Source of the DNA: an uncultured bacterium
GTDB lineage: Bacteria > Oederibacteriota > Oederibacteriia > Oederibacteriales > Oederibacteriaceae
Direction: 5' to 3'
DNA: 64,000 bases
Assembly: GCA_965112635.1 (NCBI GenBank)
Contig: OZ218778.1
Location: forward strand, 2,812,007 to 2,876,006
Shown here: in pieces, positions 54,391-64,000 of the stretch
How the letters are laid out: each line of letters starts with the position of its first letter
Position numbering within the stretch: the stretch's first letter is position 1
Notes under the pieces: model-generated
Told to the model about the DNA's origin: nothing
Seen by the model: only the letters and a program-made list of their open reading frames with translations
Databases searched by the model: none
Made by a program: the position numbers and the translations under genes

Positions 54391-54478
54391 AGACCTGACC
54401 CCGAATCCTCCCAAAATACCATCACAATATATCAATATCAACCTTGTTTTTCAAGTTTCAAGACTTGACCCCGTTTTG
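54391..54478. repeat. Orphan copy of the HUH-element upstream end, plus an extra AGACCTGACCCC box
   Basis: 54419-54478 is nearly identical to 62435-62492 and contains TTCAAGTTTCAAGACTTGACCCC (54450-54472); variant box at 54391-54402. Confidence 0.9.
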
Positions 54479-59470: not shown

Positions 59471-59696
59471 TTTGCCAAAATCAGATTTAATAAGGTTCGA
59501 GCAGGATGTTTCTCACACCAAAAATTTCTTAGGGTCTCAAATAATTCAGGCCTATGATTCAAATAAACACTGTTCAAGATGGGTTCCAGGGTTTTTAAAA
59601 ACCAAATCTCATATCACACCAGCTTTTCCGTCCCCCAGGAAAACAAATAACTGGATACTTGCTCATACAAGGGTAAAATTTGGGGTCAAGTCTTGA
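59454..59696 (+). pseudogene. Hypothetical ORF ending inside the HUH-element repeat (probably truncated)
   Basis: AAGGA RBS; last codons and stop are supplied by GGGGTCAAGTCTTGA. Confidence 0.4.
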
Positions 59697-60011
59697 AACT
59701 TGAATCATCCCGCCTTCTCCGCTTCCTTTAGCTTCTTACTTACTAGGCTATAGTGCACTCCCAGGTGCCTTGCTATCTCCACCTGCCGGTGCCCTTCCTT
59801 CACGGCCCTCAATATCTCCTCCCCGCTCCCTTCCTTCACCATCTCCCTTAGCTCCTTTCTCCCGGGTTTCCGGTGCCCCCTCGGATGCTCTGGCTCCTCT
59901 TCCTGCTCTTTCCTTATCTTCAATCCCTTGATGAACTGTTCGCTCCCAAAATAGATCTGCCCCGCCAGTCTTTCCCACGGACTTTCCTTCTGTCCTATCC
60001 CCTCCAGCACA
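59682..60011 (-). pseudogene. Duplicated 3' end of the HUH transposase with its 23-bp terminal repeat
   Basis: 59715-60011 matches 61604-61900; last codons differ (KAG vs KVR); repeat at 59682-59704. Confidence 0.9.
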
Positions 60012-60035
60012 CAGGAATTTGGGGTCAAGTCTTGA

Positions 60036-61581
60036 CGGGCTGTTGCCCAAATGCTGTTGAAGAAAAGTCATGAGGCGATATACTTCTTTTACAGGAGGTG
60101 ATGCCCCATGATGGGAATCGAGAAAGCACCGCAAGGGAAGCTGTTCTATGTGAATATTAACATGGAAGGCCGCGTACGAGCCAACCACCCGCTTCGAAGA
60201 GTAGCATCCCTAGTTGATTTTGACTTTGTCTACAGAGCCGTCAAGGGTAAGTATGGTAACAACGGTAACGAATCGGTTCCCCCGCCTCTCATCCTGAAAC
60301 TCATGCTTTTACTGGTATTTTACAATGTCCGCTCGGAGCGGGAATTGATGGAAACCTTGCCTGAAAGGCTGGATTGGCTGTGGTTTCTGGGATACGACCT
60401 GGAAACGGAGATACCTGATCACAGTGTGCTCTCGAAAGCCCGTAAGCGCTGGGGAGAAGAGGTTTTTAGGGAGTTTTTTGAAAGGATCGTTTTTCAATGT
60501 GTAGAAGCCAAGTTGGTAGATGGGCGGAAAATATTCATGGATTCAAGCCTGGTGGAAGCGGATGCCTCCTGCAATTCGGTGGTGGACACCCGGTCATTGA
60601 AGGGTCAATTGAGGCTTAAATACCTTGAGCTGGAAAGGCGTCTGGAAGAAGCGCCTCAAGAGAGGCGGGTTGGTTTGGAGAGACAGAGGGTAAATCAGCG
60701 CTATATATCCACGACTGATCCGGATGCGTCGTTGGTACGCCGAGTAGGTGGGAGCAAGCCTCGGTATCAGGTCCATCGAGCCGTGGATGGGGCGCATGAA
60801 ATTATCACGGCGACCGAGGTGACACCAGGCGAAGTGAACGAGGCCCATCGGATGGAAGCGTTGGTAGATCAGCACCACCAGAACACAGAGAGGCAAGCCC
60901 AAACAGTAGTGGCGGATGGAAAGTATGGGACGGTAGAGAATTTTCTAGCCTGCTTGGACCGAGGAGTGGAGGCTCATATGCCCGACCTGGGAAAAACGAA
61001 TCCAGGAAAGACATCCCGGAAGCCGATATTTCCTGCATCGGAGTTCCATTACGACCCAGTCAGCGATAGATACGAATGTCCAGCCGGGAACCATCTCAAG
61101 CCCAGATCCGTTCACGAAGCGAAACAGAGCACAGATTATGCGGCGTCTAAACATGATTGCATGGCTTGTGGGTTGAGAGATCAATGTACGGAGAGCAATA
61201 GTGGGAGGACCGTAAATAGGCATTTCCGACAGGAAGAATTGGATAGCATGAGACAAGTCAGCCGATCCTGGATAGCGCAGAGAGACATTCGAATAAGACA
61301 ACATTTGATGGAGCGCAGTTTTGCCAGGGCGCAACGATATGGTTTCGCCCGAATGCGATGGCGAAGGCTTTGGAGGGCTCGGATTCAGGAGTATTTGACG
61401 GCGGCAATTCAGAATATCGAGATACTGGTAAAGCGAGGAAGAGGACCGAGGGCGCAAGCGGTGGTTTTGGAGGTTTCTGGAAGGTTGTTAAGGCTATTTA
61501 AGGACTCGCCTGTCTCTCATTGCTGGCTAACACCTTCTTTTTGCTAAAAGTCGGCAGAGAGATCGTTTGGGCAACAGCCCG
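60036..61581 (+). mobile_element. IS1182-family insertion sequence
   Basis: Perfect 16-bp IRs CGGGCTGTTGCCCAAA / TTTGGGCAACAGCCCG; 4-bp TSD TTGA (60032-60035 and 61582-61585). Confidence 0.92.
60108..61547 (+). CDS. IS1182-family transposase
   Basis: NHPLR, SERELM, PDHSVLS, MDSS...ADAS, TTDPDA, ADGKYG, CPAG zinc-ribbon insertion, ERSFA. Confidence 0.92.
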   Translation: MMGIEKAPQGKLFYVNINMEGRVRANHPLRRVASLVDFDFVYRAVKGKYGNNGNESVPPPLILKLMLLLVFYNVRSERELMETLPERLDWLWFLGYDLETEIPDHSVLSKARKRWGEEVFREFFERIVFQCVEAKLVDGRKIFMDSSLVEADASCNSVVDTRSLKGQLRLKYLELERRLEEAPQERRVGLERQRVNQRYISTTDPDASLVRRVGGSKPRYQVHRAVDGAHEIITATEVTPGEVNEAHRMEALVDQHHQNTERQAQTVVADGKYGTVENFLACLDRGVEAHMPDLGKTNPGKTSRKPIFPASEFHYDPVSDRYECPAGNHLKPRSVHEAKQSTDYAASKHDCMACGLRDQCTESNSGRTVNRHFRQEELDSMRQVSRSWIAQRDIRIRQHLMERSFARAQRYGFARMRWRRLWRARIQEYLTAAIQNIEILVKRGRGPRAQAVVLEVSGRLLRLFKDSPVSHCWLTPSFC

Positions 61582-61593
61582 TTGAAACTTGAA

Positions 61594-62430
61594 TCATCTC
61601 ACTTTCTCCGCTTCCTTTAGCTTCTTACTTACTAGGCTATAGTGCACTCCCAGGTGCCTTGCTATCTCCACCTGCCGGTGCCCTTCCTTCACGGCCCTCA
61701 ATATCTCCTCCCCGCTCCCTTCCTTCACCATCTCCCTTAGCTCCTTTCTCCCGGGTTTCCGGTGCCCCCTCGGATGCTCTGGCTCCTCTTCCTGCTCTTT
61801 CCTTATCTTCAATCCCTTGATGAACTGTTCGCTCCCAAAATAGATCTGCCCCGCCAGTCTTTCCCACGGACTTTCCTTCTGTCCTATCCCCTCCAGCACA
61901 TATTCCTTATATTTCCCCACCGCCTTTGTTTTGTTCTCCCCAAACTGACCCAAGACCCAGGCTGTATCTAACCACGCTAGTTTATGCCTGTATCCAACCG
62001 TTCCCCCATAACTGCTCCACCGAAAATCCCCTGGCCTCTCCACCATTTTCGCCCTCACCGGATTTAAGACCACATACCGGCACAGTTCAAGGGCGTGGCT
62101 CCCTTTCTCCACAACAATCGCCTTGAACCGGCCCTGGAACACATGTCCCACTCTTTTAAAGTTCCGGTTGAACCACTGCGTGTAAACGCTGTTGAGATGC
62201 CTCATCCCGTGGCTCAGGTTGGGTTCCAGGGTTTCAATGATGAGGTGATAGTGGTTGTCCATCAGGCAATAGGCATGGCATCTCCAGGTAAAACGCAATA
62301 GCGTCTGGCCCAATATCTCCAGGAACTTCTTGCGGCTCTCCCGGTCAAGGTATACTTTTTGCCGTCCGTTTCCCCGTCCCGTTATATGGTAAACGGCTCC
62401 TTGATATTGCAGTCTCAGCGCCCTGGCCAT
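61594..62430 (-). CDS. Y1 HUH transposase (RAYT/IS200-like) with C-terminal HTH
   Basis: MARALR...YHITGRGN, AYCLMDNHYHL (HUH), FQGRFK, RYVVLNPVRA (catalytic Tyr), WSSY, C-terminal QVEIARHLGVHYSLVS. Confidence 0.9.
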   Translation of the reverse strand: MARALRLQYQGAVYHITGRGNGRQKVYLDRESRKKFLEILGQTLLRFTWRCHAYCLMDNHYHLIIETLEPNLSHGMRHLNSVYTQWFNRNFKRVGHVFQGRFKAIVVEKGSHALELCRYVVLNPVRAKMVERPGDFRWSSYGGTVGYRHKLAWLDTAWVLGQFGENKTKAVGKYKEYVLEGIGQKESPWERLAGQIYFGSEQFIKGLKIRKEQEEEPEHPRGHRKPGRKELREMVKEGSGEEILRAVKEGHRQVEIARHLGVHYSLVSKKLKEAEKVR

Positions 62431-62451
62431 AGTGCCATCAATATATCAAAA

Positions 62452-62709
62452 TCAACCTTGTTTTTCAAGTTTCAAGACTTGACCCCGTTTTGCCCGCATC
62501 GCGATTCCAAGAGTATCGTCATAAACTCCGAATTTTGAAGTTGAAGTGGTTGCATCATAATGAGTATAAGGGAGTGCGACATAAAGGCTATTCGTAATAC
62601 CAGATATATCAAATGTAGTCGCAGTGATAGTGACTGGGGTGGTGTAGGCATGACCCACCCTGTTTAAAACGAAAAATACCAAGGCGACACCGATCAACCA
62701 ACGACGCAA
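62452..62709 (-). pseudogene. Secreted protein truncated at the HUH-element end
   Basis: Signal peptide and Thr-rich start; the last 12 residues (KRGQVLKLEKQG) are encoded by the repeat end. Confidence 0.5.
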
Positions 62710-62725
62710 ATTTCAATTCTCTTTT

Positions 62726-63502
62726 TTATAAGGATTTGAAATGTTCAAAGATTTTGATCGTCTCTAAATATCTAGAGCGTTCCTTTTTTTTGTCCTCAAT
62801 AAACTTCTTTCTTTTTTCTTGTGGAAGCTCCCCTGGAAATTGCCTACTGTGCACAAAATAAACCGTATCGGCAAAATCTCTTAATACCTGCTCATTGTTA
62901 TTGGGAAATCTCTTGCGTAACCATTCAACATATATTGGACTTAACTCCGATGTTTCTACTTTTTTTACCGTTGAAACATTTTTATACCTGTCCTTGAGTC
63001 CTGCCTGAGCCATATCCAGCCATTCAATCGCACAATACAAGCGAACCCTTTCCTTGTGGCTAAATCTTTCAAAGAATTCTTCCGTTAGGGTTTCAAGTTT
63101 CTCTGCGGTTCCTTTATAGATAGGGCCGGTATTATTTCGATGATGAGCTTGCTCAATATTAATCCAATGATATTTAAGCGTTTCTCCCAGATCAGTTAAC
63201 AACCTAATATTCTCTTTGCTCAGATTAAGACCGCTTTGAATCAAAATGAACCTAATATTTTCTGCCACTTCATCATCTTTCCCAACAGCCATAAATTGAA
63301 TATAAAAGAGCGGGTGATGACCCTGACCACTGTGAAAAAGCGACACCCAGGATTTTTTATCATTTTCCTCTCCAGGATCAGCCCCCCTGATATCTTCAGG
63401 CGTTGGTTTGGGCTGCGGGGCATCAGCAAACACCTGAGAGAGTTTTATAAAAATCGGCAGCAAAAATACGATTATTCCTAAAACCAGTATTTTCTTTTTC
63501 AT
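62726..63502 (-). CDS. Hypothetical exported protein
   Basis: MKKK plus hydrophobic signal, AAGGGGG RBS, low GC. Confidence 0.7.
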   Translation of the reverse strand: MKKKILVLGIIVFLLPIFIKLSQVFADAPQPKPTPEDIRGADPGEENDKKSWVSLFHSGQGHHPLFYIQFMAVGKDDEVAENIRFILIQSGLNLSKENIRLLTDLGETLKYHWINIEQAHHRNNTGPIYKGTAEKLETLTEEFFERFSHKERVRLYCAIEWLDMAQAGLKDRYKNVSTVKKVETSELSPIYVEWLRKRFPNNNEQVLRDFADTVYFVHSRQFPGELPQEKRKKFIEDKKKERSRYLETIKIFEHFKSL

Positions 63503-63645
63503 TATGTTCTTTCCCCCTTTTTTTAAATCTTTTTACCTAAACTCATTATCAACATTTTGATTGATGTTTACATTTGTCATGACCGTATGGCTGTGGGCTT
63601 TGCCTACGGCTGTCTGGCTGTCGGTTTCATACTCATTCCGGGGTC

Positions 63646-64000
63646 ACCTATGAAAAAGGTAGTCAAGCGTACGCACTCCTCCTGATACATTACCGGCCAT
63701 AAGGGCCTTTCGTCAAAGGACGAAGACGCCAGTCACCTATGGATGCTCTAAGGCATAGTATAGCTTTGGTAGCCGGTGGCACAATCAAGTCTCTCGGAGT
63801 TAGCCGAACTTAATTCAGCTATTCCATGACCCCTGGGTGCTCGCCGACCTCTTCCCGTCCTAAAGCTACAAGCTTAAAGGTTTCCTTACGTCTGAGCATA
63901 TACCAAATGACTTCCAAAAGCTTTCGCGCCACAGCAACCCTTCCCGTGTTGGCTCCATGCTTGAGTCTAACCCGTTCAAATAAGTCCTTGTGGAATTTGG
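63646..64000 (-). mobile_element. IS110-family element, downstream end (IS1111-like layout with a long downstream non-coding end)
   Basis: About 170 nt of non-coding sequence after the transposase stop, ending ...CTTGACTACCTTTTTCATAG|GTGACCCC. Confidence 0.6.
63819..63998 (-). CDS. IS110-family transposase C-terminus (partial; not in the ORF track)
   Basis: Manual translation KFHKDLFERVRLKHGANTGRVAVARKLLEVIWYMLRRKETF...: AVARKL..IW.ML signature. Confidence 0.8.
   Translation of the reverse strand, partial: KFHKDLFERVRLKHGANTGRVAVARKLLEVIWYMLRRKETFKLVALGREEVGEHPGVME

Follow-up and report, generated by a model that had tools for sequence, protein, structure and literature searches.

Insertion sequences (ISs) of the IS110 family have been known since 2024 to be steered by a guide RNA, called bridge RNA or seekRNA, whose co-purification and reprogramming have been demonstrated in related ISs (PMC11187229; PMC11208160). 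For the IS1111 group, bridge RNAs are reported in the right end of the element (PMC11208160), and homing of IS110-family elements into repetitive extragenic palindromic (REP) sequences is already known as well (PMC12288879; reference list of PMC11208160). We describe a further example, which leaves the mechanism itself unchanged, at the end of a 64-kb stretch (the window), itself the final part of a single 2,876,006-bp contig from an uncultured bacterium. Positions 63640-64000 on the minus strand very probably represent the right-hand part of an IS110-family IS of the IS1111 group, with a guide RNA encoded downstream of the transposase gene (tnp), the same right-end location as published, and directed against the terminal repeat of HUH cassettes, i.e., HUH/Y1 genes with outward-facing repeats on both sides.

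The transposase is represented in the window by its C-terminal end.

63819 to 63998, minus strand: C-terminus of an IS110-family transposase, 59 codons and the stop codon TAG (63821-63819), from the list of open reading frames (ORFs); the remainder lies past the contig end.

This tail aligns over 56 residues (query 293-348) at 91% identity to full-length copies of 348 amino acids (tblastn). A tblastn search with such a full-length copy shows that the genome holds four complete copies, the 56-residue tail being the sole further match. Two of the complete copies, c1 (contig 187-1230) and c1453k, are mutually identical and referred to as type A, while c1090k and c2023k (type B) are both 94.8% identical to type A. 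The two domains expected of the family are found in the full copies, PF01548 (E 7.9e-24; N-terminal, DEDD/RuvC-like) and PF02371 (E 5.7e-23; C-terminal, Transposase_20), the window copy comprising the last 59 codons only, and a full copy reaches 237 bits against a cut-off of 140 for NCBIfam NF033542, 'IS110 family RNA-guided transposase'. A sub-threshold match to a TIGR-Tas endonuclease model (30.7 bits, cut-off 100) also occurs in the full transposase (e.g., contig 187-1230). The C-terminal motif of the full copies is GLVPSTYQSA, in which Ser is kept and Ala replaces Gly, and the consensus of the relatives described below is GLVPSVHSSG; for the IS1111 group the motif is given as GL-P----S(T)G, with SG, TG or occasionally TA listed (PMC11187229). 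In the alignment of copies, 185 non-coding columns lie between the stop codon and the right end and 127 before the start codon. The longer region, which holds the entire match to the RNA model R1 (see below), is downstream of tnp, as in the IS1111 group. Types A and B are identical throughout these 127 and 185 columns, and their genes are identical at 944 of 1044 positions.

The ends of the element were set from the full copies, and the window copy shows the following right-end features.

63645 to 63646, minus strand: core dinucleotide TG of the right junction, TG being the core of the clade.

63640 to 63644, minus strand: right half of the occupied target, ACCCC, from a string check and the alignment of copies.

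63650 to 63659, minus strand: right-hand subterminal inverted repeat CCTTTTTCAT, whose partner in the full copies is ATGAAAAAGG of the left end (11/12 positions paired).

63661 to 63666, minus strand: TTGACT, a -35-like hexamer that on circularisation comes to lie 17 nt from the -10-like hexamer of the left end; the window copy shows the -35 half only.

All four other copies diverge past ...CATAGGTGA CCCC in the alignment. Their right junctions read ...TTTTTTCATAGG-TG followed by ACCCC, with ends common to the four copies and flanks alone varying. Their left junctions read CAAGACT-TG followed by ATGTGATGAAAAAGG in c1, CAAGATG-TG in c1090k and c1453k, and CAAGAGG-TG in c2023k. Taken together, the left and right junctions of the four copies imply that the elements occupy CAAGA-nn-TG-ACCCC. 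Within the genome the bases common to both junctions are TGA, and the core is narrowed to TG by the relatives L033, L042, L028 and L050, whose right flanks begin with T or C and whose left ends begin with A. TG is found at both junctions in 4/4 full copies, in keeping with the IS110 family, whose site-specific insertions show one dinucleotide at either junction and lack a conventional target duplication; left and right core are equal in 49 of the 49 kept elements (46 of 80 related loci plus three of the genome's own copies), this equality being the condition on which elements were retained. An earlier reading of the same DNA (the original prediction) had proposed GT as the core and GAAGAGGT as the upstream junction. 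Both had to be given up, as the left junction of c1, ...GACT-TG-ATG, contains no GT, the four relatives give TG, and none of the full copies shows the expected sequence, which CAAGAGG-TG resembles by accident only. The right end that it had placed is confirmed by the four other copies.

In the full copies the subterminal inverted repeat reads ATGAAAAAGGAA against TTCTTTTTTCAT (11/12), within the 7-17 bp of the IS1111 group, and its right half is kept in the window copy. This repeat, the length of the downstream non-coding region and the length of the protein together point to the IS1111-group layout (PMC11187229; PMC11208160). A second internal inverted repeat is formed by left-end GGGTCTCAAGGACC with right-end GGTCC..GAGACCC. 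In L001 (contig 1-2730), L016, L018 and L024 a conserved left-end GGGTCTCAA(A)GGACC lies about 50 nt inside the element and is the inverse of GGTCC...GAGACCC in the right-end P4 region. This internal repeat between the ends may be a protein-binding site. When the right end (RE) and left end (LE) are joined as RE-TG-LE, TTGACT lies 17 nt from TGTGAT, and 13 of 40 distinct elements match TTGACA at no fewer than five of six positions and TATAAT at no fewer than four of six with the 17-nt spacing across this junction. Such a -35/-10 pair backs the assignment of the ends and accounts for the conserved A-T-nnn-A-T at the left end. A scan of 63400-64000 returned neither promoters nor terminators (0 of each), so that processing of the transposase transcript is the probable origin of the RNA.

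The guide RNA predicted for the window copy comprises two loops and four helices.

63697 to 63849, minus strand: bridge/seekRNA module matching the covariance model R1 (P1, target loop, P2, donor loop, P3, P4) with 101.7 bits, E 3.5e-26.

63837 to 63848, minus strand: 5' strand of P1, GTCGGCG.GCAC, within the coding tail (RNAalifold, pair counts, RNAfold).

63772 to 63782, minus strand: 3' strand of P1, GTGC.CACCGGC (RNAalifold, pair counts).

63827 to 63833, minus strand: putative right-target guide GGGGT with the core complement CA, antisense to TG-ACCCC, on the 5' side of the internal loop enclosed by P1.

63801 to 63821, minus strand: P2 hairpin UAGCUGAAU-UAA-GUUCGGCUA, separating the two target guides (RNAfold of the window copy and type A); relatives have a hairpin of variable sequence and length here.

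63785 to 63792, minus strand: putative left-target guide AGACT with the core TG and A (RNA AGACUUGA), then a conserved TTG; placed by position, the core directly preceding A-T-T-G.

63760 to 63767, minus strand: putative right-donor guide, the positional homologue AAAGCTAT (RNA AAAGCUAU), which predicts a left end ATAGC...; placed by its position in relatives.

63743 to 63756, minus strand: P3 hairpin of the donor loop, AUGC-CUUAGA-GCAU, four pairs, all with compensatory changes, and 99.3% of cells paired.

63732 to 63741, minus strand: putative left-donor guide CATAGG with the core TG and AC (RNA CAUAGGUGAC), repeating the right junction.

63709 to 63724, minus strand: P4 hairpin UUCGUC-CUUU-GACGAA (RNAfold); relatives have a hairpin AGUCC...GAGACU here.

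The first module folds alike in the window copy and in type A (RNAfold), with the two-loop architecture of IS1111-group RNAs, and P1 and the right-target guide overlap the last ~10 transposase codons. That the downstream non-coding end carries an IS1111-type RNA, and that its target loop overlaps the coding tail, had both been proposed in the original prediction; model R1, stem covariation and the match of guides to flanks now argue for the former, and the position of P1 and GGGGTCA for the latter. The four strings on which that proposal was built are present on the minus strand as placed, i.e., TTTTTCATAGGTGACCCC at 63657-63640, CATAGGTGAC at 63741-63732, GGAAGAGGT at 63855-63847 and GGGGTCA at 63833-63827. 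The internal 10-mer CATAGGTGAC is present in two copies in the window, 0.08 being expected (100 shuffles, none with two copies), and corresponds to the donor-loop guide; because the post-core bases of this guide match the right flank, the 10-mer is identical to the integrated right junction. GGGGTCA is the guide for the right half-target TGACCCC. Alone it is weak evidence, since TGACCCC occurs 815 times in the genome (both strands), and its weight comes from the position that is kept in relatives, where its antisense matches the own flanks better than those of others. The string GGAAGAGGT, which had been taken as the left-target guide, lies just 5' of P1 with a two-base overlap; types A and B have GGAAAAGGC in its place, and the string does not track the target. 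The left-target guide is instead AGACT-TG-A at 63792-63785. At this position types A and B carry AGATG-TG, and CAAGATG-TG is the exact site of two of their four copies.

These assignments were compared across related elements. A search for relatives with a single protein found none, and in 61 genomes of the same phylum the best relatives are just 25-36% identical. A search with an alignment of 27 homologues returned 332 candidate stretches, 300 of which encode relatives, and the best 80 were kept. These 80 loci (39-54% protein identity) stem from metagenome-assembled genomes (MAGs) of many phyla, labelled Nitrospirota, Methylomirabilia, Chloroflexota, Gemmatimonadota and others, and from Rhizobiales. 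They show the same layout with different guide sequences. Locating the ends by an inverted-repeat search in 12-mer windows failed in the Rhizobiales-type relatives, and an anchor rule was used instead, in which the core lies 4 nt after the right-repeat TTTCA and 6 nt before the left-repeat TGAAA and an upstream internal copy of 4 nt plus the core is required. The left-target guide was set by position alone, as the 7 nt before a core directly preceding A-T-T-G or a near variant, and a candidate was found in 47 elements. Each guide was scored against the flank of its own element and against those of other elements under label permutation, and 0 of 20,000 permutations reached the observed total in each test, a figure that overstates significance in that the relatives are mutually related.

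On average, the left-target guide agrees with the left flank of its own element at 4.67 of 7 positions and with those of other elements at 2.15 (45 distinct pairs). For the right-target guide, which lies on the 5' side and is antisense to the right flank, the values are 5.74/7 and 4.81/7 (47 elements). The right-donor guide, antisense to the first 8 nt of the left end and situated on the 5' side of the donor loop, matches its own element at 5.85/8 and others at 4.98/8 (39 elements). In 30 of 47 elements the two post-core bases of the donor guide are those with which the right flank begins; in none of the 47 are they those at the start of the left end. Target-loop guides tracking their own flanks occur in elements as diverse as L026, L028, L036, L037 and L042. 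The target loop has one guide per strand, the two overlapping at the core and following the flanks from element to element.

The structure is conserved as well. From 16 sequences, RNAalifold returns P1 and P3; compensation is seen in 13 of 23 predicted pairs. It also proposed a pairing GGUCA/UGAUU, which was excluded from the model as a simple consequence of guides being complementary around the core. Model R1, which was built on this 16-sequence alignment, finds exactly the five copies in the 2.88-Mb genome (E 3e-25 to 2e-24; next match E 0.31). Across 91 sources it gives 37 matches with E of at most 0.01, all on the plus strand save the window's own, the transposase-bearing related loci having been oriented to the plus strand before the search. 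In the alignment behind the pair counts (A4), which was fitted to the model structure and thereby favours pairing, 94.9% of stem cells are paired against 72.2% in shuffled controls and 30-43% with a slid partner, and changes on both sides of the pair occur in 18 of 18 stem pairs. Two further observations were made in relatives: in L020 the element is followed, ~60 nt downstream (~2430-2500), by an unoccupied copy of the sequence it targets, GTCAACAAAAGATTTGACCCC, and in L049 (~2330-2420) the right end is apparently duplicated in tandem.

The predicted target recurs in the window.

62475 to 62486, plus strand: predicted target AGACT-TG-ACCCC, unoccupied, within the terminal repeat upstream of the HUH gene 61594-62430.

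54461 to 54472, plus strand: further predicted-target copy.

59682 to 59693, minus strand: further predicted-target copy.

60021 to 60032, minus strand: further predicted-target copy.

The HUH/Y1 gene at 61594-62430 (minus strand; PF01797, E 4.2e-11) has the target repeat at its cassette ends. Its protein scores 72.2 bits against NF047646 (REP-associated tyrosine transposase, RAYT), below the cut-off of 80. The genome contains five full paralogues of this gene (52-100% identical) plus two fragments, and outward-facing AAGA-nn-(T/C)GACCCC repeats are found on both sides of 5/5 full paralogues. The nn of these repeats is CT in the two family-1 genes, TG in families 2 and 3 (with one variant side) and CC in family 4; one flank of paralogue 2 reads CACGACCCC. 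In total, AGAnnTGACCCC has 23 sites in the genome, and AGANNTGACCCC matches six times in the window against 0.18 expected. Exact AAGACTTGACCCC sites number eight, six of which lie within the TTCAAGTTTCAAGACTTGACCCC repeat of HUH family 1. The guides of the window copy, AGACT-TG and GGGGT-CA, spell the terminus of family 1. Those of types A and B spell the terminus of families 2 and 3, and all three unoccupied AGATGTGACCCC sites flank family-2/3 genes. The central claim of the original prediction, i.e., that the HUH-cassette repeat ...AAGACTTGACCCC is the programmed target, is thus borne out by the target census and the guide sequences. Among the full copies, c1 lies in the repeat on the 3' side of an HUH family-1 gene, c1453k in what is left of a repeat at one end of an IS5-like element, and c1090k and c2023k in solitary repeats of the same CAAGA-nn-TG-ACCCC form. 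In the relatives, an HUH homologue adjoins the IS at 3 of the 80 loci (L032, L034, L056), which are those with enough flank to show an HUH gene, and GTCAAGA-nn-TG left flanks occur in several. REPs usually exceed 100 per genome (PMC2817692) and accompany a single-copy RAYT. Such high-copy dispersal is not seen here, with 23 AGAnnTGACCCC sites and five diverged paralogues plus fragments, and the HUH cassettes act more like a small mobile-unit family than like a REP/RAYT system.

The surroundings of these cassettes show additional rearrangements. An IS5-like element (DUF772 and DDE_Tnp_1, 479-aa ORF) at 60035-61582 (plus strand) has inserted into the terminal repeat on the 3' side of the HUH gene 61594-62430, splitting that repeat into TTCAAGTTTCAA and GACTTGACCCC. 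A second IS5-like copy (contig 1453891-1455438) directly adjoins c1453k, itself in the repeat remnant at the IS5-like end. Partial HUH duplicates with a terminal repeat of their own are found beside full copies, at window 59705-60028 (minus strand; residues 178-277) and contig 2270-2383 (residues 1-38). The HUH cassettes look nested or partly re-duplicated. An HUH gene is located at contig 1380-2210. A further repeat family, ending in AAAGAAAGACCTGACCCC (window 54391-54402; contig 4429 and 2866397) and recorded in the original prediction as AAAGACCTGACCCC, has no HUH gene directly adjacent. These repeats would be a near-target for AGACC-TG guides.

On the model of the published systems, the following course may be proposed. 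The guide RNA would start inside the last codons of the transposase, and P1 would close the target-binding loop. On the 5' side of this loop, GGGGU-CA would pair with the right half-target TG-ACCCC on the top strand. On the 3' side, AGACU-UG is identical in sequence to the left half-target and would pair with the bottom strand, so that the two guides overlap at the core TG. The second loop, around P3, would read the element's own ends, its 3' side (CAUAGG-UG) matching the right end and its 5' side being the positional homologue of a left-end guide. Excision by the DEDD transposase would yield a circle in which the ends are joined as RE-TG-LE (...TTTTTCATAGG-TG-ATGTGATGAAAAAGG) and the -35 box of the right end lies 17 nt from the -10 box of the left end. 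Through the enzyme, this circle would then recombine at TG with any DNA reading AGACT-TG-ACCCC, which is the outward-facing terminal repeat of one HUH (Y1, RAYT-like) family. Types A and B (AGAUG-UG) would accordingly be aimed at the ...AGATG-TG-ACCCC termini of two other HUH families, in which they sit or which they match. For the window copy, the guide predicts a left junction ending in ...AGACT-TG. The architecture, the stem covariation, the correspondence of guides and flanks and the target census are direct observations on the DNA. Production of the RNA, its binding by the transposase, its requirement for recombination in this system and the course of recombination would follow by analogy.

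Besides the mutual relatedness of the elements and the fitting of the alignment mentioned above, several points weigh against this reading. In the assembly the window copy lacks the transposase body and the left end, so that its own left junction, and hence its insertion into an HUH repeat, is unseen. Its right flank, ACCCCGGAATG, is not obviously the HUH family-1 repeat, which is ACCCCGTTTTG or ACCCCAAATT. The fold check suggested by the original prediction gave the expected architecture, but the energies of single-sequence folds are no better than those of shuffled sequences (z -0.84 and -0.21; folds of the window copy and type A). A scan of 62000-64000 with E up to 10 placed no Rfam family on the element (two chance-level matches, sR11 and rli61, lie elsewhere), and no RNA sequencing run was found to contain the stretch. 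As many as 34 of the 80 loci had been dropped before the guide tests with their ends unplaced (short contigs, runs of N, unrecognised ends). Finally, the positional right-donor guide of types A and B, UACUUCAU, complements their left end ATGTGATG at only 4 of 8 positions, and a register shifted by 5 nt gives 7/8. The right-donor guide, which would read the left end, consequently appears supported across relatives and ambiguous in types A and B, i.e., unsettled; the donor-loop guide for the right end appears clear.

The state of the contig end bears on the nature of the window copy.

63986 to 64000, minus strand: final 15 bases of the contig, diverging from the other IS copies in the alignment.

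Logan contigs of three metagenome runs (X1, X2, X3) continue with type-A-like transposase sequence beyond 63985; they have A at 63948 where the assembly has G, and the last 15 bases of the assembly are in none of them. The contig end looks unreliable and, since these metagenome contigs run on past 63985, the truncation of the window copy may be a contig-end artefact. The start of the contig coincides exactly with the right end of c1. It is conceivable, if somewhat unlikely, that c1 at the contig start and the window copy at the contig end are one IS, which the assembler split and in part mis-polished; it would be full-length, combine a type-A body with the variant RNA module, and lie in the 3' terminal repeat of HUH gene 1. 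Such a split would explain why the contig begins at the right end of one copy and ends within another. The coding tail of the window copy, up to P1, equals type A at 124 of 125 positions, the X1 contig joins the window RNA module to type-A-like sequence past 63985, and the left flank of c1, CAAGACT-TG, fits the window guide AGACT at 5/5 positions and its own type-A guide AGATG at 3/5. A simple overlap of contig ends, however, does not fit with the first 225 columns of c1 (P1 to right end), which match the window copy at only 156. Moreover, a poor fit of site and guide is not peculiar to c1, as 8 of 47 elements also sit at sites matching at most 3/5 guide positions, and contigs cannot demonstrate absence. 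The IS variants here are mosaics: types A and B combine identical non-coding regions with diverged genes, and identity between the window copy and type A goes from 124/125 to 156/225 positions at P1.

We rather doubt that the window copy is a dead 3' relic (tnp tail, RNA module and right end) remaining after a deletion or another insertion, which would leave it without a present role and render any match to the HUH repeat historical. Only 59 codons are retained in the assembly, followed by 15 bases unlike the other copies, and a left end of the kind that its donor loop predicts (TG-ATAGC...) was found nowhere in the genome. As a precedent, a 3' fragment of the transposase followed by a right end has been described for ISPpu9 of P. 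putida (PMC12288879). Yet the contig simply stops at 64000, the three metagenome runs continue with normal transposase and without the deviating bases, and the 124 of 125 matching columns before the RNA module, all of whose stems and guides are intact, argue against decay.

A third possibility, which we hold to be improbable, is that the guide-RNA module can be exchanged on its own, as a cassette, thereby redirecting a shared transposase to different HUH families. Bearing on it, the RNA modules and left ends of types A and B are identical with genes at 90%, the window module is 69% identical to that of type A with a different left-target guide, and the type-A copy c1 occupies a site that fits the guide of the window variant and not its own. 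Were the module indeed a free-standing or recombining guide gene, that of the window could steer type-A/B transposases in trans to HUH family-1 termini. The half-site TG-ACCCC is fixed in the clade across several phyla, and the clade would then be specialised in parasitising the ends of HUH cassettes, changing prey by swapping or mutating ~five bases. Finally, a protein that picks the target alone, the short repeats being DNA-binding sites of the transposase or remnants of old insertions, is very improbable: the subterminal and second internal inverted repeats do resemble protein-binding DNA sites, and no RNA has been observed, the stretch being in no RNA run, but compensatory changes keep three helices on one strand (18/18 pairs), of which DNA sites have no need, and sense and antisense guides overlapping at the core reproduce the published RNA geometry (PMC11187229; PMC11208160).

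An IS1111-group element with a downstream guide RNA remains our preferred reading. It means that an RNA-guided IS was recognised from raw sequence by a reader without tools, the guide bases of which are now corrected. A well-resolved clade from uncultured lineages is added to the bridge/seekRNA systems, with clear rules as to core, guides, junction promoter and a donor-guide extension that matches the recombination product. It also documents the homing of one mobile element into the ends of another, here HUH/Y1 cassettes; another IS1111-family element reportedly has the end of a different mobile element as its fixed target, in that case a DDE transposon. Guide variants matching different cassette families in one genome would be a natural example of retargeting by a few bases.

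Among the closest described systems are the IS1111 seekRNA elements ISEc11, ISPa11, ISKpn4 and ISPst6 (Siddiquee et al. 2024, PMC11187229). Like the present clade, they encode a DEDD transposase of 330-350 aa, have inverted repeats in subterminal position, and keep a long stretch of non-coding DNA behind tnp. As in their seekRNAs, the complement of the top strand lies 5' of the complement of the bottom strand, and the two overlap in the target (PMC11187229). Differences are the identity of 40-54% or less to the proteins compared, among which there is no named ISfinder element, the S-A motif (GLVPSTYQSA) against the SG, TG and occasional TA of the published list (PMC11187229), and an upstream non-coding region that is also long (~127 nt); the RNA here is predicted. 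The IS621 bridge RNA (Durrant et al. 2024, PMC11208160; Hiraizumi et al. 2024, PMC11208158; PDB 8WT6) likewise reads target and donor with two loops, on both strands around a dinucleotide core. The catalytic domain is related to that of the IS621 transposase (phmmer E 3.4e-14, residues 172-325), with similarity in the C-terminal half only. The core-adjacent donor-guide bases that match the recombination product may be analogous to the IS621 'handshake' (PMC11208158), which they resemble. IS621 differs in carrying its RNA upstream, within the left end, and in placing the two guides in the opposite order; its core is CT where here it is TG, and its subterminal repeats measure only 2-3 bp. With ISPpu9 and ISPpu10 of Pseudomonas putida (PMC12288879), IS110-family elements that occupy a fixed position in REPs, the clade shares a dinucleotide common to both junctions, and the same report describes an orphan 3' 'tnp' fragment with the right end and element modules that move or recombine separately. 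In ISPpu9, in contrast, the bridge RNA lies upstream of tnp, and ssr9 is a different small RNA, dispensable for transposition (PMC12288879). For ISPpu9, moreover, no junction promoter is reported (PMC12288879), whereas 13 of 40 elements of the present clade form a -35/-10 pair at the junction.

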